Source of the DNA: Magnetococcales bacterium
GTDB taxonomy: Bacteria; Pseudomonadota; Magnetococcia; Magnetococcales; UBA8363
Assembly: GCA_002753515.1 (NCBI GenBank)
Contig: PEAK01000002.1
Location: forward strand, 65,696 to 129,695
Length of the DNA: 64,000 bases
Direction of reading: 5' to 3'
Both the position numbers and the translations under genes were made by a program. Of the stretch, positions 27,901-60,062 are shown piece after piece (within the stretch, counting starts at the first letter, position 1; the number at the start of each line of letters is the position of its first letter). A model generated the notes under the pieces. The model saw only the letters and a list, made by a program, of their open reading frames with translations, searched no databases and was not told where the DNA came from.

Positions 27901-29496
27901 ATGGACTCTTTGTTGTTGGAAGTGGGCAATCTATCGATCAGTTTTGGTACCGGGGAAGATCGGGTCCAGGCGGTGGATGGGATCTCCTTTACCTTGTCCC
28001 CGGGGGAAACGTTGGGATTGGTGGGTGAGTCGGGTAGTGGCAAAACCATGGCGGCCATGTCGTTATTGCGTCTCCTGCCCCCTACCGCCCGTTTTCAAGC
28101 CGATGTGCTGCGTTTTCGTGGTCAATCCATGATCACCCTTGATGACAAGGCTTTGTTGCACGTGCGTGGTCGCGGCATAGGCATGATCTTCCAGGAACCC
28201 ATGACCGCCTTGAATCCGGTGTATCCCATATTTCGCCAATTGGCGGAAAACATGGATCACACCCTGGATCGGAAACAATTGCGCACTGAGGCGATACACC
28301 TGCTGGATGTGACGGGCATTTCCAGACCCGAAGATTATCTGGATGCCTATCCCCATCAATTGTCGGGAGGGCAGCGGCAGCGGGTGATGATTGCCATGGC
28401 GTTGGCGAGAAAACCCGATTTGTTGATCGCCGACGAACCGACAACCGCTTTGGATGTGACCATTCAGGCGCAGATTTTACAGTTGCTGACCGCGATCCAG
28501 AAACGCCTTGGCATGGCAATGCTCTTGATTTCTCATGATTTACATATGGTGCGTAAGGTGGCGTCACGGGTGGCGGTCATGCAAAATGGGCGGATCGTCG
28601 AGCAGGGGACGACCGCAGCAATTTTTAACGCCCCAACCCATCCCTATACCAAACGCCTGATTGCCAGTCTTCCCAATGCCAGCGGTCCCGAGCCGATTTC
28701 GCAACCGGTTCCATTGCTCCAGGGCGAAAATTTGGCGTGCCATTTTCCGGTGAAGAAAGGGTTTTTCCGGCGAACGGTGGGTTCCATCAAAGCGGTGGAT
28801 GGGGTATCGCTCACCATTCATCGTGGTGAAACCGTGGGGGTGGTGGGGGAATCGGGTAGTGGCAAAACGACCCTGGGAGAACTCATCTTACGATTGAACG
28901 AGGGGACGGGGCGTTTGTTGTGGGAGGGTGTTGATCTGTTTTCCCTCAATCGTGTGGCGTTACGGCAGATGCGGCGACAGATCCAGGTTGTGTTCCAGGA
29001 TCCCTTCTCTTCGTTGTCCCCCAGATGGAGTATTGGGCAAATCCTGGAGGAGGGATTGATCCTGCACGGGATGAAAGGGGAACCGGAGCGGCGCCGGCAC
29101 GTGGTGTTGTCCATGTTGGAGGAGGTCGGTTTGGAGGCTTCGGCTTTGCACCGTTATCCGCACCAATTTTCCGGTGGTCAGCGCCAGCGGATCGCCATCG
29201 CCCGCGCCATGGTACTCAATCCCCGCCTGTTGGTTTTGGACGAACCCACCAGTGCGTTGGATCTCACGGTTCAGGCGCAAATATTAGCGCTTTTACGCAA
29301 ATTGCAGGAACGGCATCAACTTTCGTTTCTCTTCATATCCCATGATCTCAGGGTGATTCGTGCCATGTCGCATCAGGTGATGGTAATGTGGCAGGGCAGG
29401 GTGGTGGAGACAGGGGTGTCAGAGGATGTGTTTCGTAACCCCAAACACCCCTATACCCAACAATTGTTGCGGGCGGCCTTGGACCTTTCCGCCTAA
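27901..29496 (+). CDS. yejF: ABC transporter ATP-binding protein with duplicated ATPase domains, YejF-like
   Basis: Two Walker A motifs (GESGSGKT twice), two signature motifs ([18 protein letters not shown]) and two Walker B motifs ([24 protein letters not shown]). ATG at 27901. Confidence 0.85.
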
Positions 29497-30509
29497 CCTT
29501 TGTCAGAAAATACCCCTTCCAGCGACTGGGCATCAAAAATACGGAGACTCCAATTTTCCAGGTCAGGCAAATCGGCTTTGTCAATTTTTTCCTCGACCCA
29601 AGTGGGTAATGTGCCGAAGCGGTTTTGCAACTGACGTATCAACGATTTTGCCGCCCCTTTTATTTCGCCACGCTGTTCACCAATGGTCTCGCCCTCCAGC
29701 CTGCCCTCCAGCCTGCCCTCCAGCCTACCCTCCAGCTTGCCAATACCGTAGGTCGATAGAACCATGCTGGCCTGATCATGAAGGTCATCTTTGTAGCGTT
29801 CGTAGGATTCTCGTTCTGCTCCAGAAAGTTTCAATATATCAAGCTGCTCTTTGGCTTTATCAAGACCACGTGCGGTGAATCCCTCACGAATTTCCTCATT
29901 TTTCAAAAAGTAAATCCACTCATCCAAAGTATCACGCGCCATATCATCGAAGCGATTTATCTTGATCAGATAATATTCTGGGTAAAGTTCTGGAATGGAA
30001 TTTCGGTGAAAGAGAGCCTTTTGACCATCGCTAAGATGTAATTCGTCATTGGTATGCATTCCTTTAAAAATAGTCGTCCCCTTATAAATGTAATCGTCTC
30101 CCTCTCCCAAGTCGAAATACATGATACTCACTGAAATAACTTTAGGTGAATTTGCGTACGGTTCTCCTTCATCGATATGTTCTGTAACGGCCTTGGCTGT
30201 GCCATACAATAGGCGTTGCAGATAATCCAACTGCCGTTGGAATTGTATCTCGATAAGGATCAAGTCACCGCGCTTATTTTTGACTTTGATATCCACGCGA
30301 TTGTATTTATCACGCCGATCCTCTTTGTTGCTTTCACTTTCCAATATTTCCTGGATATGAATATCATCCTTGAGGAGTTCGCTCAAGAACCCCTCAAGGA
30401 TTTCAAAATTGGCCTTGCTGCGTAAAAGGCGTTTCAAGGCCCAATCGAAGCTGATCAATCGACGTTGTTTCACGTTCCGCTGTCCTTCACCATACTGCAA
30501 ACAACACAA
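29493..30509 (-). CDS. Rpn-family / PD-(D/E)XK nuclease-family putative transposase with DUF4351-like C-terminus
   Basis: ISFDWALKRLLRSKANFEILEGFLSELL, the nuclease core RVDIKVKNKRGDLILIEIQ, and the C-terminal tail GEIKGAAKSLIRQLQNRFGTLP. The region is AT-rich relative to its flanks. The convergent 4-nt overlap is with the yejF stop. Confidence 0.7.
   Translation of the reverse strand: MCCLQYGEGQRNVKQRRLISFDWALKRLLRSKANFEILEGFLSELLKDDIHIQEILESESNKEDRRDKYNRVDIKVKNKRGDLILIEIQFQRQLDYLQRLLYGTAKAVTEHIDEGEPYANSPKVISVSIMYFDLGEGDDYIYKGTTIFKGMHTNDELHLSDGQKALFHRNSIPELYPEYYLIKINRFDDMARDTLDEWIYFLKNEEIREGFTARGLDKAKEQLDILKLSGAERESYERYKDDLHDQASMVLSTYGIGKLEGRLEGRLEGRLEGETIGEQRGEIKGAAKSLIRQLQNRFGTLPTWVEEKIDKADLPDLENWSLRIFDAQSLEGVFSDKG
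29689..29736 (-). repeat. 4 x 12-bp in-frame tandem repeat encoding (GRLE)n
   Basis: tcgccctccagc ctgccctccagc ctgccctccagc ctaccctccagc, translated on the minus strand as LEGRLEGRLEGRLEGE. Confidence 0.9.
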
Positions 30510-36420: not shown

Positions 36421-37503
36421 TTGATCGTGTTGGGTAGTCAAAAAGACAGGCATTCATCCCCTGGATTGAAGCGGAAATCGCGAGGTATCGGCGCGTTGTA
36501 TTCTTGTGCGACCGTGTTTTTTTGCTATTTCAGTCTGTCCATGGCATGCTCGTTGGCGGCTTTGGCCCCGGAGGATCCCCGTCCCCCCTTGGAACCCGAA
36601 CGCTCCTGGGACGCCATTGTGACCAAAAAAGAGAGTTTAATGGTCAAATATATGGATCTGGATCCGTTGGGACTGCACGGCCAGGGGCGCATGGTGCTAC
36701 ACTCGTTGCATCCCCTGGTGAACACCATTTCCTTTGACAAGGTGACGGGCAATCCTGAGTTGTGGCTGAAACGTATGGCGGGATTTTCGGCCTTGGCCCA
36801 TTGGTTGGTTACGCGGCAGCAGTTGGGGGAGATCAAACTGGCTGGCCTGGAGGTGTTAATGACCGCCGAAGGGATTGATTTCAAGTTTGATCGGGCCGAT
36901 ATCAAGGATGGGTATTTGCTTCAAGGACGTGGGCGCTTTGCGTTTGATGGACGATGGGCTGTACGCTCGGGGGCGTTATGGCTCAGCAGACCGCCGTTTA
37001 AGGATTTGGACAAACCTTTTGCCCGCCCCATGGGTTATGGCACTTTGGATGCTTATGGTGCCAAGGGGCGCTTCAAGGCGGTGATGGATGAGGCGTTTGC
37101 CTTGGATGCCAGTACCGGCCATGTGGAAGCCAATGCGGTTTGGAACGATGCGGTAACTCGCGGCGACATCGACAAGGTGGAGGCGGAATGGGGTGTGGAA
37201 ATGACCACATTTCGCGTCAGCGATGCCTTTTTTGAACAAGGTCCCCGGGATTTGTCGCATGAGTTATTGACTTATGCCGGTTTGACGCCAGCCTGGGGTA
37301 TGGCTTTTCCACGCATAACCTTGTCGGGCAGCGTCACCGGACCGAGCTATAAGGCCCATGCCTTGCGGTTGTCGTCACCTAGCTTGCAGGTGTGGGGCAC
37401 GGCCCATGGCATCTGGTATCCTTTGCCCGGTTCCATGAACGTGGAGGTGACTGCCAAAAGCCCCGGTCGGGATATGCGCCAGTTCGTCTGGCCGGGAAAA
37501 TAA
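36421..37503 (+). CDS. Hypothetical protein (start uncertain)
   Basis: Long ORF with coding-like composition and no recognisable motif. TTG 36421 would give a hydrophobic N-terminus (FFCYFSLSMACSLAALA). The ATG at 36640 has a better RBS (AAGAGAG). Confidence 0.4.
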   Translation: MIVLGSQKDRHSSPGLKRKSRGIGALYSCATVFFCYFSLSMACSLAALAPEDPRPPLEPERSWDAIVTKKESLMVKYMDLDPLGLHGQGRMVLHSLHPLVNTISFDKVTGNPELWLKRMAGFSALAHWLVTRQQLGEIKLAGLEVLMTAEGIDFKFDRADIKDGYLLQGRGRFAFDGRWAVRSGALWLSRPPFKDLDKPFARPMGYGTLDAYGAKGRFKAVMDEAFALDASTGHVEANAVWNDAVTRGDIDKVEAEWGVEMTTFRVSDAFFEQGPRDLSHELLTYAGLTPAWGMAFPRITLSGSVTGPSYKAHALRLSSPSLQVWGTAHGIWYPLPGSMNVEVTAKSPGRDMRQFVWPGK

Positions 37504-37556: not shown

Positions 37557-37583
37557 AAAGATTTTCCAGTATTTGCCCGACTT
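37557..37583 (+). promoter_or_regulatory. Putative sigma-28 (FliA)-type promoter upstream of motA
   Basis: TAAAGATT (37557-37564), an 11-nt spacer, then GCCCGACT (37576-37583). Compare the remembered consensus TAAAGTTT-N11-GCCGATAA. About 87 nt upstream of the motA ATG. Confidence 0.3.
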
Positions 37584-37669
37584 GATACCCATATCGGGGA
37601 ATGCTTGCTGTATGCGGTGCAGGACGTTTTCCAAGGGGCCTTTTTGTAACAACATGGGAAAATAATGGC

Positions 37670-38425
37670 ATGGATCTCGCAACAGTCATCGGAATGATTC
37701 TTGCGTTTGCTGCGGTTGTCGGTGGCATTCTGTTGAATAGTGGCCTGAAAGTGTTTTTCAACCTTCCAGGGCTTCTGATCGTGGTTGGGGGGACGGTGGG
37801 GGCGATGCTGATTCGCCACAAAATGGCCGATGTATTGGCTTCGTTCACCTTTTTGATGCGGGCGGTGATCGTCAAGACCCAGGACCCCGCCAAGGTGATC
37901 GGACAATTGATTGAAATGGCGACCATTGCCCGCAAAGATGGCATATTGGGATTGGAAAAGTTCAGGTCGGACAATCCTTTTTTGCAGGTGGCCATCAACC
38001 ATTGCGTCGATGGTGCCGATCCGGAATTTTTGGAAAGCGTTTTGACCAAGGAACTGAGTTACATGGCCCAACGCCATGCCCGGGGTATCAGTGTGTGGGA
38101 GGGTGTTGCGGAGATCGCCCCGGCTTTTGGCCTGATGGGAACCTTGGTCGGCCTGGTGCAAATGCTGGCCAACGCGTCGGATCCGTCGGCAGTGGGGCCA
38201 GGTATGGCCGTGGCGGTTTTGACCATTTTTTACGGCATGTTGATTGCTCATGGGATCGCCATTCCCATCTGTACGAAATTGGCGACCTACAGCAAAGAGG
38301 AACAAATGGTGCGTCAGGTCATCATCGATGGCATGATCGGCATCCAAAAAGGGGTGAGTCCCCGATTGTTGCATGAGGCGTTGCAAGCCGCCCTGCCGCC
38401 GGCGGAGCGCGGAGCCATGCCGTAA
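37670..38425 (+). CDS. motA: Flagellar stator A subunit (MotA/PomA family proton/ion channel)
   Basis: 251 aa. MDLATVIGMILAFAAVVGGILL, IAPAFGLMGTLVGLVQML and GPGMAVAVLTIFYGMLIAHGIAIPICTKL, with both conserved Pro contexts present. Confidence 0.85.
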   Translation: MDLATVIGMILAFAAVVGGILLNSGLKVFFNLPGLLIVVGGTVGAMLIRHKMADVLASFTFLMRAVIVKTQDPAKVIGQLIEMATIARKDGILGLEKFRSDNPFLQVAINHCVDGADPEFLESVLTKELSYMAQRHARGISVWEGVAEIAPAFGLMGTLVGLVQMLANASDPSAVGPGMAVAVLTIFYGMLIAHGIAIPICTKLATYSKEEQMVRQVIIDGMIGIQKGVSPRLLHEALQAALPPAERGAMP

Positions 38426-38476
38426 CGAACCGTGGCGCATTATCGGACGGGAAGATCTTACATGGACAGGTTTTAG

Positions 38477-39274
38477 TTGATGGCCCAGTGCCCCGCATGC
38501 AAAAAGCCAGTTGTGACGGGATTGAACTCGTTTTCCGGTTTGATGGTCCTGCTGTTGGCTGTCTCTCTTTGGATGCTCTCCTTTGCCCGGTTTGACGGGC
38601 CAAAGTTTGATGAAGCAGCGGGTTCCATTCGCCGCGCTTTGCATGCCCCGGCGCTTTCGGGCAGTTCCGCACCCCTGTCATCCTGTGGCCAGGAGCCAAG
38701 CCTTGCGGAATTCAATCAGGAAATCGTCCTGGTTCATCTCCTGGACCAGTTGAACGTGACGCTTGCCAAACAATTGACCAGTTCGGAAGCGGAGATTGTG
38801 GCGACGGATCGTGGCATCGTCGTTCGTTTGGCGGGTGATTTCCTGTTTCAGCCCGCCAATCTGCAATTTCGCAAGGAATCCCTGCCCGTGCTGCAGGGAT
38901 TGGCAACACTTTTGGCCGGGGTGGAGAATGCCGTGTTCGTCAGCGGTTATACCGATAATGCCCCCCCTCCGGCCGGTTTACCATTCCCATCCAATTGGGG
39001 GTATTCCGCCGGCATGGCGGCGAGTGTGGTACAATTCTTGAGTGAAACCTCCGGGATGGATCCGTCGCGTCTCCAGGCGCTGGGTCTGGGGGAGTTTTCG
39101 CCTCGCCAACCCAACGCTACCGATGCGGGCCGGGCCGCCAATCGCCGGATTGAACTGTTTATTTCGCGCATCAGACAGGCACCGGTCGTGGAAAAAGTCG
39201 TGCAACCGCCAAAACCAACCCAGGATGGGGAGCCGAAGGCCCCGACCTTGGAACCTGCGGCGGTGGTTCCCTGA
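38477..39274 (+). CDS. MotB-like stator B subunit with OmpA-like peptidoglycan-binding domain; conserved channel Asp absent
   Basis: C-terminal VFVSGYTDNAPP...FPSNWGYSAGMAASVV...GRAANRRIELFI. The single N-terminal TM, NSFSGLMVLLLAVSLWML, aligns with the canonical (Y/F)AD(L/F)MT(L/A)L motif but has SG in place of AD. In-frame stop (TAG) 6 nt upstream of the ATG rules out a longer N-terminus. Confidence 0.7.
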   Translation: MMAQCPACKKPVVTGLNSFSGLMVLLLAVSLWMLSFARFDGPKFDEAAGSIRRALHAPALSGSSAPLSSCGQEPSLAEFNQEIVLVHLLDQLNVTLAKQLTSSEAEIVATDRGIVVRLAGDFLFQPANLQFRKESLPVLQGLATLLAGVENAVFVSGYTDNAPPPAGLPFPSNWGYSAGMAASVVQFLSETSGMDPSRLQALGLGEFSPRQPNATDAGRAANRRIELFISRIRQAPVVEKVVQPPKPTQDGEPKAPTLEPAAVVP

Positions 39275-39292
39275 CAACCATGGAGAAGGGTC

Positions 39293-39889
39293 ATGGCAGC
39301 CGTTACACAAAAACCCGGGGATAATCAACAACGCGCCTTTGTACGCGTCGACGACTATTTGCCGTTGTCCTGGCGTCGGGTTGGGGCCGAAGAGTTTGCC
39401 GAGGTCATGGCAACCTACAAAAAGTCGCAAACCTTTCCCGTTGTGCCCGACGACATCCAGACGATTCTGACCAACCTGGAGGTCACCGATAAAATTGTGT
39501 TATTGGAGCGTTCCGATCCGGTATTGGCGCGTATTTTGGCGCGCATGGATATGAAGCTCAATATGTTGCTGAAGGTGTTTTATCCCGGTACCGAAGCCAG
39601 ACCCATGGTGCCCACCTGGGTGAACTTGAGTGGTGGTGGTGTGGCCTTCAAGGAGGCGGGCCTGGACGCCAAGGTGGATGACATTCTTGAACTCAGGTTG
39701 GCGTTGTCTCAAGATTCCTTGGCTTCCATCCAATGTTTTGCCCGGGTGGTGAAAATCTTCCCTCCCGACCAGGGCGGCTTGATCAAGGCGGCTTGCCAGT
39801 TTGAACCAATCCTCGATGGGGATCGGGAAAAGTTGATCCAGCATATTTTCAAGCGCCAGTCGGAATTGTTGCGGGCCAAACGGAGTTAA
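39293..39889 (+). CDS. PilZ-like c-di-GMP receptor candidate with a long helical insertion
   Basis: QQRAFVR (RxxxR, R14-R18) and NLSGGG (N-x-S-x-x-G, from N111) are both present but ~93 aa apart. The start lies 18 nt after the motB-like stop. Confidence 0.55.
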   Translation: MAAVTQKPGDNQQRAFVRVDDYLPLSWRRVGAEEFAEVMATYKKSQTFPVVPDDIQTILTNLEVTDKIVLLERSDPVLARILARMDMKLNMLLKVFYPGTEARPMVPTWVNLSGGGVAFKEAGLDAKVDDILELRLALSQDSLASIQCFARVVKIFPPDQGGLIKAACQFEPILDGDREKLIQHIFKRQSELLRAKRS

Positions 39890-41706
39890 TGGTCACGGTA
39901 ACAACTGGAAGATCTTTCATGGCAGAACATTTCGCAGACAGTGCGCAACCGGAAAATCTTTTATTTTGGTACCGCCGCGTTTCACCAGCGCAATTGGCGG
40001 TGATCCGGGAGTGTCGCACCAAGGGGGCACAGATGCCCGAGGCGCGACCGGGTATGGGGGAAGCGGTCGCGAGCCTTTTGGCCAAGGAGGCGGGGATCGT
40101 GCCATCGACGGCACCCCGGGGCCAACAGGGATTGGCCCGTGCCTCTGTTTTGGAGGCGATGAACCGTAAATTCAATTTATTGTTGGGATTGGTTTATCCG
40201 CCGGAGTCGGTGGTTCAGAGTGCCCCGGTGATGTTGGATCCGGATGGCGACGGGGTGGTGGCTTGGCTGAAGGATCCCAGCTTTGCTGAAAATGATTGTG
40301 TCGAATTACGGTTTCTTGCGAGTGCGAAACTGCCCTGGCCGTTTCACAGTTATTGCCGGGTGGCGCGGATGGTGCAGGAGAATTCGCGTCCTGGTGTTCG
40401 GGTGGAATTTCGCTTTGAAACGGTTCACCCGAATGTTCCCGGTACGGAATCGCCACCTGCCAGAAAGTTGCCACCTCCCAAGCGGGACAGTGTTCCAGCC
40501 AAACCTGTTGTTGCGCCCCCAAAACCTGTTGTTGTTCCCCCCAAGCCTGTTGCTCCTCCCCGGGTTGTGTCGGCTCCTCCTATCGCCAAACCGGTTAATC
40601 CCGTCACATCCGTTCGGACTCCCAAGCCGGATTTGCCCGAGCCGGTCAAGGTTGTCGCGGAGAAGGACGAGGATAAATACGAACGCATGTTGCAGGAAGG
40701 GATGAAACTGTCGCAAGCGAAGATTGGTGAGGCGGTTGCCAAAAAGGGGGGAGACCCTTTCCTGGCATCGCAACCCCAGGTGGACAAACGGCGGGATTTT
40801 CGCATCAATGATCGCATCCCCTTTATCTGGAGTCATGTCAGCGAAGAATCCTTCAAAGAGGCCATGGTGACATTTCACAAGGATAAAGCGTTCACACTGC
40901 GATCCATTATCCGCAATCAGCAAAAAATATTGACCGACCTGGCCAATGTTCAGGAGTTGCTGAAGCGCAAGCGCTCCAAGGCCAGAAAACATGTGGATTG
41001 GCATCGTGATCGACTCTCCTGGTTGTTTTTGCGGGCCGCTTCGGAAAACGAGGAGACCTATTATCAACACATGACCGAATTGTTTGTGGTCATTGCGAGT
41101 GATATGGCCAAGCAGGGGGGTGGGGCGATCAGTCAGTGGAGTATGCAGGCGTTATCGCTGCTGCGTAATATGATGGAACTCAAACAGACACGCGATCAGT
41201 CCAATCCCATCACCGAGGCCAACGCGGTCAAAAAGGCGGAGTCGGGATTGGCGGATGTGGAACGGCAGTTGCCCAAGGTGTTGGCCAAGGTGGAGGAGGG
41301 GGATCCGGCGTTGGCTGCCAAAATGACCATGTACAAAGAGGCGATTGGTGCCATCGATTTAACCCTCCATGATCGACCGGTTGGCAAGACGGCTGATGGC
41401 AAGGATCTTTATACCGTGAATATCAGTGCTACGGGACTGGCCTTTCGTACGCGCAGATTGTGGGTGAAAAAGGGTGACTTGTTGGAAATGCGGGTGTTTT
41501 TGAGCAGCGATGGCAAAAAATTTGAACCGGTCAATACCTATGGCCGGGTAGTGTTCGTCCATGGGCCGGTGGACAATAAACTCAAGGTGGCCACCTTTAT
41601 CGATCCCAAGCCCGCTTTGTACGAACAAAAAATTTACCTGCACATTGCCCGTCGGCAACGGGAAATGCTTTCGGAGCGGGCCTCCGTTCGGGATGACGAT
41701 TTTTAA
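39889..41706 (+). CDS. Two-module PilZ-like protein (degenerate N-terminal module, Pro-rich linker, C-terminal module with intact motifs)
   Basis: TAATG overlap with the previous gene. The C-terminal module has KRRDFR (301-305) and NISATG (from 511). The N-terminal module is paralogous (FWYRRVSPAQ, MNRKFNLLLGLVYPPE) but lacks both motifs. Linker KPVVAPPKPVVVPPKPVAPP. Confidence 0.55.
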   Translation: MVTVTTGRSFMAEHFADSAQPENLLFWYRRVSPAQLAVIRECRTKGAQMPEARPGMGEAVASLLAKEAGIVPSTAPRGQQGLARASVLEAMNRKFNLLLGLVYPPESVVQSAPVMLDPDGDGVVAWLKDPSFAENDCVELRFLASAKLPWPFHSYCRVARMVQENSRPGVRVEFRFETVHPNVPGTESPPARKLPPPKRDSVPAKPVVAPPKPVVVPPKPVAPPRVVSAPPIAKPVNPVTSVRTPKPDLPEPVKVVAEKDEDKYERMLQEGMKLSQAKIGEAVAKKGGDPFLASQPQVDKRRDFRINDRIPFIWSHVSEESFKEAMVTFHKDKAFTLRSIIRNQQKILTDLANVQELLKRKRSKARKHVDWHRDRLSWLFLRAASENEETYYQHMTELFVVIASDMAKQGGGAISQWSMQALSLLRNMMELKQTRDQSNPITEANAVKKAESGLADVERQLPKVLAKVEEGDPALAAKMTMYKEAIGAIDLTLHDRPVGKTADGKDLYTVNISATGLAFRTRRLWVKKGDLLEMRVFLSSDGKKFEPVNTYGRVVFVHGPVDNKLKVATFIDPKPALYEQKIYLHIARRQREMLSERASVRDDDF

Positions 41707-41724
41707 AAGCTCGGAAACCTACTC

Positions 41725-42768
41725 ATGAACGTAAGCATCGGCATGAACCTGCAGTCGGGTGCCTGGGGGGGGGGCAACCAGTTCGGGCGGGCCTTGAGTC
41801 AGTATTTACTGGATCATGGTCATCGGGTGAGTCACGATTTGTCGGAACGGGATCTGGATATCATCCTCTTGGCGGAACCGGATGCCCGATTAAAAATTTC
41901 CGCTTATGACCACCGGGCCATTCTTCGCTATCTGCTGCAAAAGAACAAGAACGCCATTGTCGTCCATCGCATCAACAATACCAGCGAGGCCAGGGACGAT
42001 GAAAAGAAAAAATTCAATAAATTCAGGATATATGCCAATCAGATCGCTGATCATACCGTTTTTGTCAGCCAATGGGTGAAGGAACGCTATGAAGAGGCGG
42101 GTTTTGCTGCGAAACGTCCCGTGAGCGTCATTTTGAATGGCAGCGACAATCGGTTATGGTCTCCCGGCCCGGCCAAGAAAACGCCGGGAAAGCGTTTCAA
42201 ACTGGTGACGCACCATTGGAGCAACCATTGGAACAAGGGGTTTGACGTCTATCATGAGCTGGATCAATTGCTGGCCCATCCCGGGTGGGCTTCCCGTTTG
42301 ACGATGACTTACATCGGCAGGGTGCCCAGCGATTTCCATTTTGTAGAGGTCCGACATGTGCAACCGTTATCGGGGGTGGCATTGGCGGAAGAGTTGCGGC
42401 AACACGATGCCTATATCACCGCATCCCGTTTTGAATCGGGGGGGCATCACAATTTGGAAGCGGGGCTGTGCGGCTTGCCATTGCTCTACTTGAACAGCGG
42501 TGCCATGGCGGAGTATTGTCAAGGTTTCGGGATTGAATACACCTTGGAAACCTTGGAGGAAAAGTTGGAGGAGATGCTGGCCACCTGGCCCCATTGGGTC
42601 GGACGTATGGCCGACTTTCCCCATACGGCGGATGCCATGTGTCAACGGTACCTGGACTTGTTCTCCGAGTTGCTTGCCAACCGCGATGACGTTTTGGCCC
42701 GGCGCCGCTGGTTCAAACGTATCCCCTGGATGGTGTCCGCCATGATGAAATCCAGCAGGCCAGCCTGA
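41725..42768 (+). CDS. GT-B fold glycosyltransferase (GT4/GT1-like)
   Basis: VFVSQWVKERYEEAGF...VILNGSDNRLWSP and the ITASRFESGGHHNLEAGLCGLPLLYLNSGAMAEY (E-x7-E-like) region. Confidence 0.55.
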   Translation: MNVSIGMNLQSGAWGGGNQFGRALSQYLLDHGHRVSHDLSERDLDIILLAEPDARLKISAYDHRAILRYLLQKNKNAIVVHRINNTSEARDDEKKKFNKFRIYANQIADHTVFVSQWVKERYEEAGFAAKRPVSVILNGSDNRLWSPGPAKKTPGKRFKLVTHHWSNHWNKGFDVYHELDQLLAHPGWASRLTMTYIGRVPSDFHFVEVRHVQPLSGVALAEELRQHDAYITASRFESGGHHNLEAGLCGLPLLYLNSGAMAEYCQGFGIEYTLETLEEKLEEMLATWPHWVGRMADFPHTADAMCQRYLDLFSELLANRDDVLARRRWFKRIPWMVSAMMKSSRPA

Positions 42769-43895
42769 TGGCGACTCTGCCGCCGGCAAGCGACTGGCCG
42801 GTTTTACAACGGGCTGTCGAAAACGCCTTTGCGCCACCGGCACCAGCAAGAAGCAAGAGTTCCCGTATCATTGATTCCATCATCCCCGCTTCCTGGAACC
42901 TATTCAGGAAAAAACGCTTTCCCAACGCTATTTACGTCTTGACCTACCACAGCGTTGTTGATCCCGGGCATCGGGAGATGTGGGAGCAGTGCTACCGCAA
43001 AGGGGAGACGACGGTTGTTCAATTGCACCGGCAATTGGAATTCATGATGCGCCACATGACCCCCGTGGCCTTGAGTTCTGTGCCGCAATTATGGGCTGAG
43101 GGGGGGCTGGATCGTCCCTGTTTCGTGGTGACCTTTGATGATGGTATGACCAACAATCGCACCCATGCGCATGCTATCGTCCGCTCTTTGGGTATCACCC
43201 CTACTGTTTTTGTCTGTTCCGAGTTCGCCAGGCAGCGACAAACATTCTTCCGGGTATTGGCAGCGGTCCTGGTGCAGCAAGGGTATGCCTCTCGGTTGGC
43301 GGCCAATTTGCGCGCCAGTTTTCCGCAATGGGTGTGGCCGGATGACGGGGAGGCGTTGTTCAACGCGACGAAGGGTCACTATTGCGGTGGCGCGATGGTG
43401 GACGTGATCGATGCCACGTATCGTGCATGCCTGGGGGATCCCCGGGGGCTTGCCGTCCATTTGGATCGGGATGGGGTGGCGTACCTGGCAAAAAACGGTT
43501 GGGAGATCGGAAACCATACCCGATCCCACCACCTTCTGGCTTGGCAAACCCGGGAAGAGGTGGTCCAGGCCATTCAGGGGAATGCCGATGATTGGCGGGA
43601 GGAGGGGATTCCACTGATTGACTTCATCGCCTATCCCATTGGTCGTGCCCGGGATGTCGGGCCTGATGTTTGGCAGGCGATGCAACGGTTTCCCCATTTG
43701 CATGGCCTGTTTTGCAATGGTGGCGTCAATTTTTCGTTAAACCGCTGCGAATGGATGCGTTTCAGTTTCGGGCGGCATACCGACCCGGACGTACTGGAAA
43801 AGATTATCAATCAGGAGGTCCAGAGAACGCGGATTGCCCGGGCTACTCTACCATCGTCCCAGGAAGGCCCCTTCCAAAACCCAGCGGCGCCGTAG
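42768..43895 (+). CDS. Polysaccharide deacetylase (NodB homology domain)
   Basis: FVVTFDDGMTNN and GNHTRSHHLL motifs. The start overlaps the GT stop (TGATG). Confidence 0.75.
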   Translation: MATLPPASDWPVLQRAVENAFAPPAPARSKSSRIIDSIIPASWNLFRKKRFPNAIYVLTYHSVVDPGHREMWEQCYRKGETTVVQLHRQLEFMMRHMTPVALSSVPQLWAEGGLDRPCFVVTFDDGMTNNRTHAHAIVRSLGITPTVFVCSEFARQRQTFFRVLAAVLVQQGYASRLAANLRASFPQWVWPDDGEALFNATKGHYCGGAMVDVIDATYRACLGDPRGLAVHLDRDGVAYLAKNGWEIGNHTRSHHLLAWQTREEVVQAIQGNADDWREEGIPLIDFIAYPIGRARDVGPDVWQAMQRFPHLHGLFCNGGVNFSLNRCEWMRFSFGRHTDPDVLEKIINQEVQRTRIARATLPSSQEGPFQNPAAP

Positions 43896-45428: not shown

Positions 45429-47177
45429 TCACCCAATTATACCGGGGATACGAGGCATAAGTATTCCAGAACTGAGTTTGACTATCGATGCCCTTACATC
45501 TAATAGCTCACGCCTTAAATGCCGAGTAGTACTCAAAGACGGATTCAACTGTAAGGCGCATGTAAAATCATCAATTGCCTTATCAAATTCATATATTTTT
45601 CTATATGCAACACCCCTTGAATGATATATTTGCGCATCGTTCTTGTTAATTTTCAGAGCTTTTGAATAAGAATCAATTGCAGTATTATAGTCACCACTCA
45701 TAAATAATACTGAACCTCTATTAAACCAGGCAACATTCTCATTTGGGTGCAAGACGACGGCACGATCAAGATACTCACGAGCTATAGTGTAATCTCCACG
45801 TATTGCCAATATTACACCAATATTAACAATTGCGCCAAGATGACATGGCTCCTTTTCTAGAATTTTATTGAACAAATCCATGGCTTTATCATTATTGCCA
45901 TAATCACAGTATAGTACGGCTAGATCGAAAAGTGTATTGATTCCTATCTGGTCATTGCCTCGTATTTCAATTGTTCGTATTTGATCAGCAATATTTAGCA
46001 GTTGCAACGAATGTTCTGCTGGGCTGTACTCAGGGTCAAAGTAAAGTGACTTTTTATAAGCAGCAACCGCTTCATCGATTAGATTGCAATATTCATATGA
46101 AATGCCTAGTTTATGGTGAGCATATGCACTCATTGGACGCAGCTCTACTAATTTGCTGAAGGCTTCTAAGGCCTCCTGAAAACGTCCCAATCCAAGCAAA
46201 ATTTGCCCTCGATGGTCATGAGCATCGTAATACCATGCATTTAATTTGATAGAAGAATCACATTCTTTAAGCGCATTATCAAGATTACCTTTGGCGGCAA
46301 GGCAAAGTGCTAGTGCAAGGTGCCCGCTAGGATCTGTTGGATCAATCTCAATCCCTTTATTTGCCCAAAATAAAGCATTGTCGATATCTTGAAGACGTCT
46401 ATAAGTATGTGCAATTCCCCAATGCGCAGTAGGAATCGACGGGTTGAGTTGAAGTGACGCATTATATGTATCTAAGGCAGCTTGGAAATCGCCACGCATA
46501 TGTTCAATATTGCCTTTTATACAGAGAACATGTGAATCATTTGGAGTGGCAAGCAAATAACGGTTAACAATAGAATATCTTTCTGAGAGATTAAAAGAGT
46601 CAGATTTCGCAAACAGTTTAAAAAAAAGTTCAATTTTTTCAGAGTCGTTTCGATTTATAATAAACTTACATGCTTCTAGAATAGCACTCTTGGCTGTGTC
46701 AGTATTGGTAATTTTTGTTAAAACGTGGCTTTTTGGAATCTTCAATCTATTATCTTTAATATTATTACTGTTTACAATTTCCCAGTATGCTTCGCATGTA
46801 TCAGGATTGTATAGTACTATCATTATAGGTATCGGAAAAGTCAGCCAGTAATCAAAATGCACTTTATTATTCTTAAATGTTATACTACTATCGTTCTGAA
46901 TTCTAAAATAATATTGTCCGCACTTTATTTGTATGCCAATAACGATAGATCGTCCACCTACTGACACCTTGCTCTCAATAATGGCGTCAATTCCAACATC
47001 CCTTGACGTAATAGGATGGTATAGCCAATTTAGCCTAGTGAAAATGCCCGCAACCTCATGCTCTCCAACTTCACCCGTTTGGTTCGACTTTTTATTATTA
47101 TCATAATTCGTCATTAAATTTTTTTCCAATGTGTTATACTGAGTTGCAATCATAGAAATATTAACGTAAGCTATCAC
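45429..47177 (-). CDS. DUF4365-like (PD-(D/E)XK-fold) N-terminal domain fused to a long TPR array
   Basis: N-terminus GEVGEHEVAGIFTRLNWLYHPITSRDVGIDAIIESKV...GIQIKCG resembles DUF4365. The remaining ~400 aa hold at least 8 TPR-like units (e.g. AHWGIAHTYRRLQDIDNALFWANKGIEIDP, AWFNRGSVLFMSGDYNTAIDSYSKALKINK). Strongly AT-rich. Start uncertain (GTG 47177, ATG 47153 or 47114). Confidence 0.6.
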   Translation of the reverse strand: MIAYVNISMIATQYNTLEKNLMTNYDNNKKSNQTGEVGEHEVAGIFTRLNWLYHPITSRDVGIDAIIESKVSVGGRSIVIGIQIKCGQYYFRIQNDSSITFKNNKVHFDYWLTFPIPIMIVLYNPDTCEAYWEIVNSNNIKDNRLKIPKSHVLTKITNTDTAKSAILEACKFIINRNDSEKIELFFKLFAKSDSFNLSERYSIVNRYLLATPNDSHVLCIKGNIEHMRGDFQAALDTYNASLQLNPSIPTAHWGIAHTYRRLQDIDNALFWANKGIEIDPTDPSGHLALALCLAAKGNLDNALKECDSSIKLNAWYYDAHDHRGQILLGLGRFQEALEAFSKLVELRPMSAYAHHKLGISYEYCNLIDEAVAAYKKSLYFDPEYSPAEHSLQLLNIADQIRTIEIRGNDQIGINTLFDLAVLYCDYGNNDKAMDLFNKILEKEPCHLGAIVNIGVILAIRGDYTIAREYLDRAVVLHPNENVAWFNRGSVLFMSGDYNTAIDSYSKALKINKNDAQIYHSRGVAYRKIYEFDKAIDDFTCALQLNPSLSTTRHLRRELLDVRASIVKLSSGILMPRIPGIIG

Positions 47178-47615: not shown

Positions 47616-48512
47616 TTAAAGCCTGATCGTGCATTCCACCTCATTGCCGGAACCCAAGAACCGAACCTGGTCAAAACTGGCTTTGACGGCAATGGCGATG
47701 CCCCTGCCGTGCGTATCCAGCATCCGTTCGGGGTTGAAATCCAGGTACGGTTCGCTATCAAACCCAGTGCCGTCATCGCGAATACGGAAGTTTATTTCAT
47801 CTTCTTTGCGCGTGAAAAGAACCACCACATGCTTCTCCTGGTTCTCCGGCAATGCCATGCGCCGCTTAATTTCATTTTCAAGTTCATTTTTTCTATTGAA
47901 AATACCTTTTTCCTCATAGGTGATACCGAGATTGCCATGCTCCACGGCATTGATCAATATTTCTCGCAAACCGACCGCTGCTTTTTCTGGATTGGGACAG
48001 GTCAAGGATAACAATACCGACAATTGAAAGGCTTCGGACATGGTTTGGATGCGAAACCGAGCCTCTTCCATATGCATGGAGAGTGGACAACGGGTGACCT
48101 GGATTTGTCCATATAAGCATTGGTGGGCTGTTTTCCGGTTGATGGCGGCCTGGACAATGGCTAATAAAATATTGATATCCAAAGGTTTTGTAAGATAATA
48201 GAAAGCGCCGAGTGACAATCCCCTGGCAATGTCTTCGCTATTTTTGCGACTGGTGGTGAAAATGATGGGTATCCTTCGGGTAGTTTTTATGGCATGCAAT
48301 TGTTCGCATACTTCAAAACCGTTCATTCCCGGCATTTCCACATCCAGCAGGATGGTATCGACATCTTCGGTTTGCGCCGTTTGCAGGGCATCTTCACCGT
48401 TGGTAGCGACGAGGACCCGATAATCCTGGCTCAAGGCTTTTGCCAATACTTTGATATTGCCAGGGATATCATCAACGACCAATACCTTGTGTCGCTTTTC
48501 GTTTTCGGTCAT
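47616..48512 (-). CDS. Response-regulator receiver fused to an RsbW/SpoIIAB-type HATPase domain (no DHp/HisKA)
   Basis: REC: [14 protein letters not shown]...[15 protein letters not shown]...YLTKP. C-terminus: [13 protein letters not shown]...[11 protein letters not shown]...[12 protein letters not shown] overlap with the upstream kinase gene. Confidence 0.75.
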
Positions 48513-51361
48513 TTCTTGCCACTTTCCTTATGCAATTTGAGCTGTTTTGTGATGGTTTCGAGGAAAACGAGCGCACCATTGAAATCGACTCTTTCTAGTT
48601 TTTCCGCCAAGGCATCTGTATTTTTCAACAATTCGTCATCGCCGCAAGCCACGAGGTGTGGTCGGAGTTCTTCAAACACTTCCAATGATTCAAAATAATG
48701 CCCTTCGATCAACCGCCCCAGTTCGCGCACCAAGGGCAGAACCTCAGATAAATTCAAAGGGGCTTTTTCAGGGGGCGGTAGGGTTGCGGCAAATTGTTCA
48801 TCCGCTTGTTTCAAAGCTCCGATGGCGTGTATCACTTCGTTCAAGGCTTCTTCAAAATGGATCAATAATTCTCCGTTAAAGTGGATATTTTCCCGTAGTC
48901 CCTGCTCCAAAAGGGAGGAGGCTTCAAACAGGCGTGTTGCTGACATATTGCCCGCTATCCCGCGCACACTATGGGCCAGTTGTGCGGAAGTCTTGATATC
49001 GTCTTTTCTTTTTCCCGCCAAGGTCATACGAATTTCCCGGGCGACATGGGCGTAATCACGGTGGAATTCGTAGAGCAGGGAGCGCAGTAACCGGCGGTCA
49101 CCGTTCAGACGTTCCAGGCAATTGGCCAGATCGATGCCAGCGAGAAGTGTCGGCAAAGGTGGTCCCTCATCCTGAGCTTTCTTTCCCGCAGGCACTTGTA
49201 ACGTGATTCCCAGTCCCTCCCGCTTGCGGATCCACTGGCATAGTTTGTCGTAAAAGATTGTTTTTTCCACGGGCTTGGCAACATGGTCATTCATCCCGGC
49301 ATTCAGGCATTTTTCCCGGTCACCCGCCATGGAGTGGGCTGTCATGGCGATGATTGGTAATTCCAATAATCCCAGTTTGTTGCGAATCTGTTGCGCCGCT
49401 TCAAAACCGTCCATTCTGGGCATTTGGACATCCATGAGTACCAGATCCAATTCAACGCCCAACTCCTGGACCCTTTGCACAGCCTCCATGCCATCCCACG
49501 CTGTTTCTACGAGTATTCCGACGGATTCCAGAAATCCTTCCGCCACTTGCCGATTGATGGCATTGTCCTCCACGAGAAGTATCCTGGCCCCGCCGATGCG
49601 CTTGGCGATTGCCGCCAGATCGGAAAAATCGTCCGATTGTCGGCAGGCTTTGGCAACCGATCGGCCAAATACATTCATGATGGCGTCGAACAACAAGGAG
49701 CAATTGACCGGTTTGGATATCACTCCATCGACTTCGAACACATCCAACTGATCCTTGATCTCCTCCTCACGACCATAAGGGACCATGAGCAAGAATTTGG
49801 GAGGCGCTTTATTTGTTTCCGTGGCCTTGATGTGCATGGCGGCATCCAGACCATTCATCCCGGGCATCACCCAATCCACCAGGATTAACTGGTAGGGATT
49901 TCCCTGTTCTTTGGCTTGAGCCACCATGGTTTGGGCGACCTCTCCCGAGATGGCACCACTGGCTGTGAAGCCGAACATGGTCAAGGTATTGATGAAAGCC
50001 CGGCGTGCCGTATCGTTATCATCCACGACCAACACCCGCAGGAGCTGCATGTCATCGGGTGTGATCATATCGACCATTTCAGTGCCAAGGCGGCGTTGCA
50101 AAAGGGCGGTGAAATGGAACACGCTGCCCTGTCCCGGTTTGGACGCCACCCAGATCTTGCCCCCCATCATTTCGACCAATTTGAGGCAGATTGACAAACC
50201 CAATCCGGTACCGCCAAATTTGCGCGTGGTGGAGCTGTCGGCTTGGGAGAAAGGTTGGAACAACCTGGCGATTTGCTCGTCGTCCATGCCGATTCCGGTA
50301 TCGCGAATGATGAATTCCAACTCGCAATCGTTCGCCGATTCCCTGAGGGTTTTGACCTGGATTTCAATTTCCCCCTTTCGGGTAAATTTCAAGGCATTGC
50401 TGACAAAGTTCATCAATACCTGTTCCAGGCGCAGGGGATCGCCGAACAATTCATAACGGCATTCATCCGACATGCACATCACCAATTCCAGTTGTTTTTC
50501 GGTGACTTGTGCCTGAAACATGTCGGATAGGTGATCGAAGATATCCCTGACCAGGAAGTGCGACATCTCCAGTTCCAATTTGCCCGCCTCAATCTTGGAA
50601 AAGTCGAGGATATCATTGATAATACGCAAGAGTGATCGGGAGGAATTGGTAATTTTGGTTAAATAGTCGCGCAGGCGCGGCGACATGTCGGTCTGCATCG
50701 CCAGGTTGGAAAAACCGATGATGGCATTCATGGGGGTGCGGATTTCATGGCTCATGTTGGCCAAGAACTGCCCTTTGGCCCGGTTGGCCACTTCTTCATC
50801 CGCTTTGGCTTTTTCCAGTTCGATGAGGTATTGGCGTGTGGTCTCCTCGGCCCGGATCCGCTTGGTGATTTCAATTTCCAGATCCCGGTTGATACTCCTG
50901 AGTTCCAATTCCATTTTTTTGCGTCGGGCCGTTTCCTCTTCCAGGACTTGGACGTAGCGTTCCTGTTCCAGGTGCTTTTGATGCAATTTTAAAAATATTT
51001 TAACCTTTGAAAGCAAAACGGCATTGTTGACGGGCTTTTGGATGAAATCTACCGCTCCCAGTTGATATCCCATGATCCGCTTGTCTTCATCGGAGTGGGC
51101 CGCCGTTACGAAAATGATGGGTAAATCTTTCGTCCGTTCCGCACCATACAAGGCTTCCGCCACTTCAAAACCGTTCATCTCCGGCATGTTGACATCGAGC
51201 AGAATCATGGCGAACTCATGATCCATGCACAACGTCAACACTTCAATTCCCGAAGTCGCTTCGATGATGTCGGTATCCAGGCGTTCCAGGATTCTCCGCA
51301 TGGCAACCAAGTTGGCGGGGAGGTCATCGACGATCAGTATCTTTGGCCGCATATCACTCAT
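48509..51361 (-). CDS. Hybrid histidine kinase: REC - coiled coil - HisKA - HATPase - REC-like - REC - Hpt - C-terminal helical tail
   Basis: [12 protein letters not shown]...[13 protein letters not shown]; [18 protein letters not shown]; DTGIGM...GGTGLGLSI; [12 protein letters not shown]...[11 protein letters not shown]; [12 protein letters not shown]...[10 protein letters not shown]; Hpt [11 protein letters not shown]. Confidence 0.85.
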
Positions 51362-51941
51362 GCTGGAAATTTCCCAATTGCTTCAAGGTGCGTGCAATGG
51401 CATTCAAAGGAAGTACTTGATCTGCCGCTCCATGGGCGATGGCACATCGGGGCATGAACGGGGCTTCGGCGTCTTGGGGGTCTTGAACCAGTGTCTTTCC
51501 GCCGCGTTGCCGAATTTTTTGCAATCCTGCCGTCCCATCCCGACTGGCACCGGTCAATAATACCCCTATAAGACCCGTCTGGTAAACATCGGACGCCGTT
51601 TCAAACAAAACATCGATTGCCGGACGGGAATGGTGTACGGCGGCATCGATGGAGAGAGCGAGGGTGAAATCGGGTTCCACCAGGAGGTGATAGCCCGGGG
51701 GGGCGAAGAGGATGTGACCCGATTGGACGGGTTCCTTGTCCATGGCTTCACGTACCGGCAGACGGCAATGCAGGGCCAATAAAGAGCAACCTCGGGGGCC
51801 TGAACCTTGGGCTGGCTGGTGCTGGACCACCAGTATGGGAACCGGGAATCCTTCGGGAAATACCGGGAAAAGGGTACGCAATGCCAGGAATCCCCCTGCC
51901 GATGCGCCGATGACAATAGCCCGGGGTCGGGGGATGGTCAT
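51354..51941 (-). CDS. cheB: CheB-type protein-glutamate methylesterase, catalytic domain only (no receiver domain)
   Basis: 195 aa. [10 protein letters not shown] (Ser nucleophile context), ILVVQHQ (His) and LLTGASRDG (Asp). No N-terminal REC. ATGA overlap with cheR and an 8-nt overlap with the downstream kinase. Confidence 0.8.
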
Positions 51942-52771
51942 GCCCCCACCTTTTTTTGGTAAATGCGCTGTTCCCTGGAAATCGGGGTGAAACGGTGTTC
52001 CACAGCGGTGAAAGACAAGGATTCATGGCTCCCCAGGCACAAAACACCCCCGGAAACCAAACTTTTCTCAAAAAGGTGCAGGACTCGATTGGTTAATTCC
52101 TTGTTGAAATAGATCATGACATTCCGGCAAAAAATCAAATGGGTCTCGGAAAAAACATGATCAGTGGCCAAATTGTGTGCGGCAAAGACGATATTTTCCT
52201 TCAACCCGGAGGGTATGCGTGCCAAATCGTATTTGGAATGATAATAATCAGCCAAAGAGTGTTGACCTCCGCCATTCAGGTAGCTTTGTGATGATTCCAG
52301 CATGCTGCTCAGGTTATAAATACCTTCCTTGGCGTGCTGCAAAGATTGACCGTTGATATCGGTGGCAAAAATGCGAACCCGCTCGTACAATCCCTCTTCG
52401 CTGAGCAGAATGGCCAGGGAATAGACCTCTTCTCCCGTTGCACAACCGGCATGCCAGATGGTGATGAAGGGATAGGTTGCCAGCAAGGGTATCACCTGTT
52501 TGCGCAATGCCAGATAAAACAGGGGATCGCGAAAAAATTCGGTTACGGTCACCGATAAGGCTGTGACGAGGCGGTCCAAAAATTGGCGATCATGAATGAC
52601 TTTGGGGATGGCTGCGGAAAGAGGGGAGATACCGCATTCCGCCAAACATTGAAGCATGCGACGCTTCAAGGAGGAGTGGGCATATTGACGAAAATCATAA
52701 CCATAGCGTAGATATATGGTTTCCAACAGGAGACGCATCTCTAAATTTTCAATCTCAGCTTCCGAATCCAT
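51938..52771 (-). CDS. cheR: CheR-type protein-glutamate O-methyltransferase
   Basis: N-terminal helical domain (LLLETIYLRYGYDFRQYA...SLKRR), TEFFRDPLFY, and the SAM-binding IWHAGCATGEEVYSLAILL...RIFATDIN. ATG at 52771 overlaps the upstream gene by 17 nt. Confidence 0.85.
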   Translation of the reverse strand: MDSEAEIENLEMRLLLETIYLRYGYDFRQYAHSSLKRRMLQCLAECGISPLSAAIPKVIHDRQFLDRLVTALSVTVTEFFRDPLFYLALRKQVIPLLATYPFITIWHAGCATGEEVYSLAILLSEEGLYERVRIFATDINGQSLQHAKEGIYNLSSMLESSQSYLNGGGQHSLADYYHSKYDLARIPSGLKENIVFAAHNLATDHVFSETHLIFCRNVMIYFNKELTNRVLHLFEKSLVSGGVLCLGSHESLSFTAVEHRFTPISREQRIYQKKVGA

Positions 52772-55064: not shown

Positions 55065-55067
55065 GGT

Positions 55068-60048: not shown

Positions 60049-60062
60049 ATCTTTACAAAATC

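Follow-up and report, generated by a model that had tools for sequence, protein, structure and literature searches.

A PomAB-type stator operon of Magnetococcales with PilZ partners in which the ion-binding aspartate of the B subunit appears to have been lost repeatedly

One aspartate (Asp) of the B subunit is regarded as the indispensable residue of flagellar stators and likewise of ExbD, TolR and ZorB. What, then, might a stator operon be kept for when this residue is missing? The question is raised by a locus in a stretch of 64,000 nucleotides (nt), hereafter the window, from a Magnetococcales bacterium (assembly GCA_002753515.1, contig PEAK01000002.1, positions 65,696 to 129,695 of the forward strand). 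The list of open reading frames (ORFs) and inspection of the sequence gave six plus-strand ORFs at positions 37670-43895 of the window, for which a first-pass annotation had described a MotA and a MotB-like protein encoded together with two PilZ-like proteins, a glycosyltransferase and a polysaccharide deacetylase. Judged by its sequence, the part from 37670 to 41706 is orthologous to an operon that is widespread and consists of a PomAB-type stator and a c-di-GMP-motif PilZ protein with a helical insert (insert-PilZ); in Magnetococcales it is extended by a two-domain PilZ protein. We tentatively favour the reading, to which we give a little less than an even chance, that it encodes an ion-dead pseudo-stator which docks at the motor, is governed by cyclic di-GMP (c-di-GMP), and regulates or scaffolds instead of driving. 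The features of this part are listed below, with protein lengths in amino acids (aa).

37670..38425, plus strand: pomA/motA-like A subunit, 251 aa (MotA_ExbB, PF01618, 90.5 bits, above the cut-off)
38480..39274, plus strand: pomB/motB-like B subunit, 264 aa (Pfam OmpA, 38.8 bits, above the cut-off)
38537..38539, plus strand: GGT codon for Gly20 of the B subunit, at the site of the essential stator Asp (PomB D24, E. coli MotB D32)
39293..39889, plus strand: small stand-alone PilZ protein, 198 aa (Pfam PilZ, 32.7 bits, above the cut-off)
39919..41706, plus strand: large PilZ protein, 595 aa from the ATG at 39919, the ORF being open from the ATG at 39889 (PilZ, 23.4 bits, above the cut-off)

Aligned with HMMER to PomB of Vibrio and MotB of Clostridium, the B subunit places Gly20 on PomB D24, in agreement with the earlier observation that Ser-Gly replaces Ala-Asp in the transmembrane (TM) segment, and the loss is shared by orthologues. 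Three further replacements were found in PomB numbering, namely Val23 for S27, Ala27 for C31 and Trp31 for L35; a role in ion dehydration has been proposed for S27 and C31 (PMC11725901). A substitute for the missing carboxylate was not found, as no acidic residue occurs elsewhere in the MotB TM segment of the window or of any Asp-less orthologue. Like PomB of Vibrio alginolyticus, the protein has an N-terminal Cys motif, a single TM segment, a plug-like segment, which is retained by alignment (MotB_plug, 17.4 bits, below the cut-off), and a C-terminal OmpA-type peptidoglycan-binding domain. The GYTDN and NRRIE motifs of this domain are kept, and the Arg of SxxRA is changed to Met, which is also the case in several Asp-keeping orthologues. 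The Cys motif is the CPAC sequence formerly described as a lone N-terminal motif; it is indeed present but represents a remnant of the CxxC/CxC N-terminus usual in PomB-type proteins (KCPPCKK in Asp-keeping orthologues, CDCPPPG in Vibrio PomB). Among the ~230 best MotB homologues retrieved, the Asp is absent only in members of the module described here and kept in the ~225 others; its absence is far beyond chance.

Nothing was found in favour of an artefact, and a sequencing error, an incorrectly assigned start and a pseudogene can all be ruled out with near certainty. The same Gly is present in three independent assemblies of close relatives (L008, L011 and L009, the last of which encodes the identical protein, P0001). 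L008 also shares the GGT codon, and Asp-keeping orthologues use GAC. Upstream of the motB-like ATG, an in-frame TAG (38474-38476) followed by a TTG precludes a longer N-terminus, as had been stated before, and because of this stop codon and the independent assemblies neither a corrected sequence nor an alternative start would restore the Asp. Furthermore, the loss is common to 13 species representatives, and the ratio of nonsynonymous to synonymous substitution rates (dN/dS) is well below 1. The best database match was a protein from a Magnetococcales metagenome-assembled genome with 98% identity.

The A subunit aligns without gaps to residues 1-243 of V. alginolyticus PomA (E 1e-52), and PomA numbering can therefore be used directly. 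Its top NCBIfam match is PomA with 249 bits, under the 341-bit cut-off. A MotA_ExbB domain with four TM segments and both TM prolines (P151, P199) was found, and G154, T158, M165, M179 and T185 of this Na+ stator (PDB 8BRD, 8BRI, 8ZYV) are likewise kept. The rotor-facing charges which contact FliG (R88, K89 and E96 in PomA; R90 and E98 in E. coli) are present too, and the segment ARKDGILALE that carries them is nearly invariant across all orthologues. The impression of a canonical MotA thus holds for both Pro motifs but not for the ion site, where one of three threonines is gone (T186I, codon 38225-38227) and N194 is His (codon 38249-38251); M155L and L187F are further substitutions. The set of polar ion-pathway residues is accordingly incomplete, with T158 and T185 kept, T186 changed to Ile, and S27 and C31 of PomB changed to Val and Ala. 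In addition to these replacements, the window genes differ from pomAB in being encoded together with two PilZ proteins and in having no MotX, MotY or other flagellar genes nearby.

To what extent is the loss shared, and does the A subunit follow it? Orthologues were placed on contigs and one genome per species was scanned with a profile of the 198-aa PilZ protein, yielding 20 loci, 19 of them in Magnetococcales. The order motA-motB-PilZ (~198 aa)-PilZ (~600 aa) is fixed in every complete Magnetococcales locus (18 species representatives and other assemblies). A check of orthologues for the loss had been suggested: in 13 of the 18 Magnetococcales species representatives with a readable MotB the Asp column is occupied by G, S, N, A or T. 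The Asp is kept in the other five, whose canonical TM segment and plug are nearly identical, TF[AG]D[ML]M..LLLTFF.LLLSFAQLD..KFE. Seven more Asp-less clusters came to light in a search with a profile of the most divergent clade, many of them annotated as hypothetical and lacking an OmpA match.

The A subunits divide in the same way. T185 and T186 are both present in 11 out of 11 Asp-keeping partners (five from Magnetococcales, five from operons of other bacteria, and Vibrio PomA), and not one Asp-less partner keeps both, the pairs seen being TI, TV, AT, AF, ST and GV. Five MotA columns (147, 155, 181, 185 and 187) are invariant in Asp-keepers and altered in Asp-less proteins; they surround the Na+ site of the PomAB structure, which consists of G154, T158, A182, T185 and T186 (PMC10374538). 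The substitutions M155L, G147A and L187F recur in independent clades. N194 is unchanged in all 11 Asp-keeping proteins, has been replaced in five separate Asp-less lineages, by His in the window group, L013 and L020 and by Tyr in L005 and L022, and is kept in nine of the 13 Asp-less species representatives. New Asp or Glu residues were not found in TM3-TM4 of MotA in the Asp-less orthologues. Dismantling of the ion site has thus always affected both subunits.

Trees were calculated from three partitions without the affected segments (MotB 61-232, MotA minus TM3-4, and PilZ). The Asp-keeping L010 is nested in clade I among Asp-less members including the window, with bootstrap values of 88% (MotB), 100% (MotA) and 100% (PilZ), and clade II, which is entirely Asp-less, is separately monophyletic with 94-100% support. 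Because of this arrangement at least two independent losses of the Asp are required, and more than two are likely in view of L022 and of two different MotA solutions within clade I. At MotA position 31, clade II has Asp as does the functional Vibrio PomA, and the window has Asn. The MotB proteins of clade II (within L018-L029) are also degenerate in the peptidoglycan-binding motifs GHTD and NRRxE, and several are annotated as hypothetical without a Pfam match; their partner MotA shows dN/dS values of 0.03-0.05.

Selection was analyzed by computing dN/dS on closely related Asp-less pairs, with one Asp-keeping pair for comparison. Values for the Asp-less pairs were 0.03-0.09 for MotA, 0.07-0.29 for MotB and 0.00-0.20 for the small PilZ protein; the window compared to its close relatives gave 0.035-0.040 for MotA and 0.07-0.15 for MotB. 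No Asp-less locus examined has a disrupted MotB ORF, and all four module genes are under purifying selection rather than decaying. For the TM segment and plug of MotB, however, dN/dS was 0.17-0.46 in Asp-less pairs versus 0.04 in the Asp-keeping pair, and identity to the outgroup was 33% in Asp-less proteins compared to 64% in Asp-keepers. The corresponding identities for keepers and Asp-less proteins were 51 versus 47% for MotA and 28 versus 27% for PilZ, suggesting that only this part of MotB is accelerated and that MotA and PilZ are not.

As described in the first-pass annotation, two PilZ-like proteins are encoded; both contain intact c-di-GMP motifs and are invariant partners of the stator genes. 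The small protein consists of an RxxxR motif (R14-R18), a helical insert of ~75 residues, N111-L-S-G-G-G116, a beta-barrel and a basic C-terminal helix; in its AlphaFold2 (AF2) model, with a mean predicted local distance difference test score (pLDDT) of 78, beta1 comprises residues 19-30, helices 32-96, five strands 106-173 and the last helix 175-197. The best PDB fold match is XCC6012, a tetrameric PilZ protein (E 4e-7), followed by MotI, and the only significant sequence relative in the PDB is MotI/YpfA (E 9e-7). The large protein is composed of two insert-PilZ-like domains joined by a disordered Pro-rich linker (AF2 mean pLDDT 79). By hhalign against the small-PilZ profile its N-terminal and C-terminal domains reached probabilities of 97.8% and 97.0%, and a fold search with the model retrieved PilZ domains only. 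Its N-terminal domain is without both c-di-GMP motifs; the C-terminal domain contains RRDFR, NISATG and a helical insert of ~170 aa, and R295, N501, S503 and G506 are invariant in 23 homologues. Binding of c-di-GMP is predicted from the canonical PilZ motifs (PF07238) for the small protein and for the C-terminal domain of the large one. A response regulator-GGDEF diguanylate cyclase, a c-di-GMP source, is encoded at 60063-60977, ~16 kb from the PilZ genes.

With regard to architecture, the small protein resembles the tetrameric PilZ proteins (PF16823), both in the predicted helical insert between beta1 and beta2 together with the positively charged C-terminal helix and in the sequence D86-M-K88-L-N90 of the insert, which fits the interlocking motif [DENH]x[KR]h[DEN] of that group (Galperin and Chou, 10.1101/814665). 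D86, K88 and N90 are invariant across 44 homologues, and the motif columns of the small-PilZ family are invariant or nearly so. The PF16823 model itself matches one of the 44 family members (E 0.048) and not the window protein, and the inserts are longer than in the known group (~75 aa with four predicted helices in the small protein, ~170 aa in the large one). Tetrameric PilZ proteins (XCC6012, PA2989, PlzB; PA2989 is among the c-di-GMP binders) are described as single-copy and almost never fused, and the PilZ-domain review which defines them makes no mention of a linkage to stators (10.1101/814665). Three insert-PilZ domains in two adjacent genes, two of them fused, break this stand-alone single-copy rule.

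The tetrameric PilZ protein FlgX of Campylobacter jejuni, of which a tetramer lies beneath each MotA pentamer (PMC11725899), is the closest functional precedent for an insert-PilZ protein dedicated to a stator. The modelled likeness is one of architecture (PilZ fold, helices between beta1 and beta2, basic C-terminal helix, and in the small protein the interlocking motif of the XCC6012 type), with no detectable sequence similarity between FlgX and the module PilZ proteins. Unlike FlgX, the window proteins keep both c-di-GMP motifs; flgX does not adjoin motAB, whereas the PilZ gene of the window type is always located immediately downstream, and FlgX serves a working stator. MotI (YpfA/DgrA) shares the PilZ barrel with 28% identity and an intact RxxxR and NxSxxG, and together with YcgR and Pseudomonas FlgZ the theme of c-di-GMP acting on the stator A subunit (MotA or MotC). 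In contrast to these proteins, a helical insert takes the place of the YcgR-type N-terminal domain, the gene is fixed in the stator operon, and the partner stator would itself be ion-dead in most Magnetococcales. As domain scans of the module PilZ proteins detected no YcgR-type/PilZN N-terminal domain, the proposed analogy to the YcgR brake is supported by the c-di-GMP motifs but not by the architecture, which is of the insert-bearing tetrameric-PilZ type (FlgX).

Outside the order, a three-gene motA-motB-PilZ operon occurs in other phyla; it was found in the Thermodesulfobacteriota locus L028 and in all four distant relatives sampled. The five non-Magnetococcales operons all keep the MotB Asp, T158, T185, T186 and N194 of MotA, and R88, K89 and E96. 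An exhaustive search with the PilZ profile yielded 520 cluster representatives at E ≤ 1e-10; most of these are full-length and ~200 aa long, and in four out of four representatives that were placed on contigs the PilZ gene directly follows motA-motB, as in L028. Since L028 and these four relatives among the 520 clusters show it, the pomA-pomB-PilZ operon appears to be widespread, and the Magnetococcales version is set apart by the second PilZ protein and the loss of the ion site. A scan of metagenomes with the PilZ profile found one further locus only, identical to an already sampled species. Literature searches retrieved no paper on this module and none for the searched phrase on MotB lacking the conserved aspartate.

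The conserved unit comprises four genes (37670-41706), not six. The remaining two ORFs of the window locus are the following.

41725..42768, plus strand: GT-B-like ORF, 347 aa (only sub-threshold Pfam glycosyltransferase matches, 22.9 versus 26.4 bits)
42768..43895, plus strand: polysaccharide deacetylase family protein, 375 aa (Polysacc_deac_1, 46.9 bits, above the cut-off)

The linkage of all six genes was borne out by the sequence, with spacings of 51 nt (to the TTG; 54 nt to the motB-like ATG), 18 nt and 18 nt and with the overlaps TAATG at 39887-39891 and TGATG at 42766-42770. The TAATG overlap at 39889 is probably not the true start of the large PilZ gene, because the orthologues begin with MAE..., corresponding to the ATG at 39919 in the window. 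The glycosyltransferase label for 41725-42768 is tentative, and a PDB sequence search found no relative supporting it. The glycosyltransferase-like and deacetylase genes are located 3' of the module only in L008, L009 and L011, which form the window's species group; elsewhere the module is followed by a type I secretion pair (ABC-C39 exporter and HlyD-type partner), a rhodanese gene or unrelated genes. In L003, L004, L005 and L013 an ABC exporter with a C39 peptidase domain abuts the module, overlapping the large-PilZ stop codon in L003-L005, and is followed in these clade I genomes by genes for a HlyD-type adaptor, an LPG_synthase_TM protein and DapF. As this exporter gene is equally close, tight spacing does not imply shared function here, and the two downstream genes of the window would be chance neighbours within its species group. 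An all-against-all comparison of the flanking ORFs identified prmA upstream in 15 loci, an IF-2B-family gene which also occurs upstream, and no downstream gene conserved across the order. In the window, a 360-aa ORF without a Pfam, NCBIfam or PDB sequence match (36421-37503, plus strand) lies directly 5' of motA; L008 and L009 likewise have a predicted gene in this position, which is held by prmA in other Magnetococcales.

It had been suggested that the module is either a c-di-GMP-responsive stator derivative which generates no torque or a PilZ-gated MotAB-derived device tied to the synthesis or modification of exopolysaccharide through the downstream genes. The second possibility is very improbable. 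Although the six genes of the window are 18 nt apart or overlapping, with no terminator-like site between them, and PilZ domains gate the synthases BcsA and Alg44, which are weak fold matches here, the polysaccharide link is left without comparative support because the downstream genes differ outside the window's species group, some of them being unrelated genes in equally tight arrangement. The glycosyltransferase label itself is below threshold, the PilZ proteins resemble MotI and FlgX rather than synthase-fused PilZ domains, and the synthase, polymerase or export genes of a BcsA/Alg44-type system are not present. The first possibility, in contrast, may well fit the loss of the Asp together with the PilZ partners. 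According to this favoured reading, the complex would no longer turn ion flow into torque and would be kept as a stator-shaped regulatory or structural part that assembles as A5B2 and, in the window's clade, is still anchored to peptidoglycan. Docking at the stator positions of the flagellar rotor without turning could be expected because the rotor face, the plug and (in the window's clade) the cell-wall anchor are kept but the ion site is gone. The insert-PilZ proteins might bind under the MotA ring, as FlgX does in Campylobacter, with c-di-GMP-dependent engagement, and the docked non-turning unit might act as a brake or as a placeholder competing with working stators. Laboratory mutants of MotB D32 and PomB D24 form stator units which assemble and do not rotate, and substitutions of E. 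coli MotB D32 are both inactivating and dominant-negative. The window lacks this very residue, but here the loss is natural and recurrent, is accompanied by changes in the A subunit and would have persisted under purifying selection for long evolutionary times. Several findings nevertheless weigh against the pseudo-stator. No flagellar genes were found beside the module in any locus examined. As the OmpA-type motifs of clade II are degenerate, a brake anchored to peptidoglycan cannot be what the module provides throughout the order. Moreover, S185 in clade II is a conservative change and might still bind a cation, and His194 of the window is located at the single PomA position at which an acidic substitution, N194D, rescues PomB D24N, so that relocated proton coupling is conceivable. 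Finally, the T158/T185/T186 triad also occurs in the H+-type stator of Rhodobacter and is not a strict Na+ marker, and for this reason the ion type of the ancestral module is not confidently assigned.

Alternatively, MotB might be a decaying passenger, its Asp loss being neutral, and MotA and the PilZ proteins might act independently of the rotor, for example as a membrane platform which sequesters c-di-GMP receptors or determines their location. Neutrality predicts repeated loss, flagellar genes are not nearby, MotB evolves much faster than MotA and PilZ, and in clade II it has lost the OmpA-domain motifs in addition to the Asp and often remains hypothetical without a Pfam match; this explanation fits clade II better than the window. 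We nevertheless regard it as unlikely, as the MotB ORF is intact and its dN/dS stays far under 1 in all Asp-less pairs, and the near invariance of the MotA charges that contact FliG is difficult to account for if there is no rotor partner. In addition, the recurrence of M155L, G147A and L187F in independent clades suggests remodelling rather than drift, and the strong constraint on TM segment and plug in Asp-keepers points to ion conduction as the ancestral function. Somewhat less likely still is a complex which remains ion-driven, turns and powers the flagellum wholly or in part, with the protonatable group moved to His194 of the A subunit. A precedent for such a relocation is GldLM, in which the essential carboxylate is located on the pentameric subunit. 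In Vibrio, N194 adjoins D24 and PomA N194D suppresses PomB D24N (PMC11725901); here, position 194 is altered only in Asp-less lineages and in none of the 11 Asp-keepers, and MotA TM3-TM4, the plug and the peptidoglycan-binding motifs of clade I are under purifying selection. However, most Asp-less lineages keep the Asn, so that His or Tyr is not a general solution, and with T186, S27 and C31 the window has also lost polar pore residues, which makes the path more hydrophobic; for these reasons relocated coupling is rated lower than the pseudo-stator. The relaxed constraint on the MotB TM segment and plug and the absence of a new acidic residue from every TM segment argue in the same direction. 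A further proposal, which we consider doubtful, takes the pseudo-stator as a convergent and permanent non-powered part of a multi-motor apparatus, that is an idler cog, a lock or a spacer between motors, set by c-di-GMP via a PilZ lattice under the MotA rings. The flagellar apparatus of magnetotactic cocci reportedly consists of bundles of 7-15 motors, and 24 interleaved fibrils are said to have been described for strain MO-1.

Strain FCR-1 is a cultured freshwater coccus which swims (PMC11950176), and its locus (L019) carries the Ser variant at the Asp column. Since an Asp-less variant is present and the strain swims all the same, the flagella of FCR-1 must be powered by other stators.

A weak sigma-28-like promoter had been proposed at 37557-37583. 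The best TAAA-N15-GCCGATAA match upstream of motA scored no better than shuffled sequences; none of the matches in the window and 22 orthologous loci beat the shuffles, the site is not conserved, and no motA examined is preceded by the exact core, so the proposal was rejected. In nine orthologous loci (L010, L013, L015, L016, L017, L022, L024, L005 and L007), among them those of the five Asp-keeping Magnetococcales, motA is preceded at a distance of 93-205 nt by a sigma-54-type -24/-12 element, TGGC-N7-TTGC. A tenth, weaker match has TCGC at its end, and the background density is ~0.2 per kb. Upstream of motA in the window, L008 and L011, where the upstream gene differs and prmA is missing, this element is absent.

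Several other features of the window were recorded. A large signalling cluster on the minus strand (47616-63676) encodes three hybrid histidine kinases (one dCache-HAMP-GAF), a GAF-HisKA protein with two receiver domains, a response regulator with a HATPase_c_2 domain, stand-alone CheB and CheR, an NMT1-like binding protein, and the diguanylate cyclase mentioned above. In L008 and L009, too, the module is followed by the first two genes of the cluster, which encode the response regulator and the hybrid kinase beside it. Between the module and this cluster, a 582-aa protein that begins with a DUF4365 domain and contains many TPR repeats is encoded on the minus strand (45429-47177) in a low-GC stretch (0.41 versus ~0.55 elsewhere); the corresponding spot in L008 and L009 is occupied by other genes, and the gene is possibly a recent insertion. 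Another stretch of lower GC content (0.46) carries a PD-(D/E)XK family transposase-like gene (PDDEXK_2 and DUF4351; 29493-30509, minus strand). At the edge of the window, a giant ORF of more than 3537 aa enters on the plus strand (5-12312) with 18 YDG and 10 DUF5650 repeats, and the next gene encodes a ShlB/FhaC-type transporter, so that the pair looks like a two-partner secretion system.

The module would thus belong to the known class of flagellar stators that have a PilZ partner for c-di-GMP; what is new is that this stator is apparently ion-dead by nature. Within one bacterial order the Asp has been discarded repeatedly while the genes, the rotor-facing surface and the c-di-GMP-sensor partners stay under selection. 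This constitutes a natural experiment on the roles that a stator can have without ion flow, such as brake, placeholder or scaffold, and reveals the A-subunit positions which co-vary with the Asp (147, 155, 185-187 and 194). The insert-bearing PilZ proteins with c-di-GMP motifs, encoded directly after pomAB-type genes, would extend the finding on FlgX to c-di-GMP-responsive forms. As the cultured strain FCR-1 carries an Asp-less version, the question is open to experiment. If the module indeed serves as a permanent non-powered part of the multi-motor apparatus, it would be the first member of the 5:2 rotary-motor family selected for a function free of ion flow.

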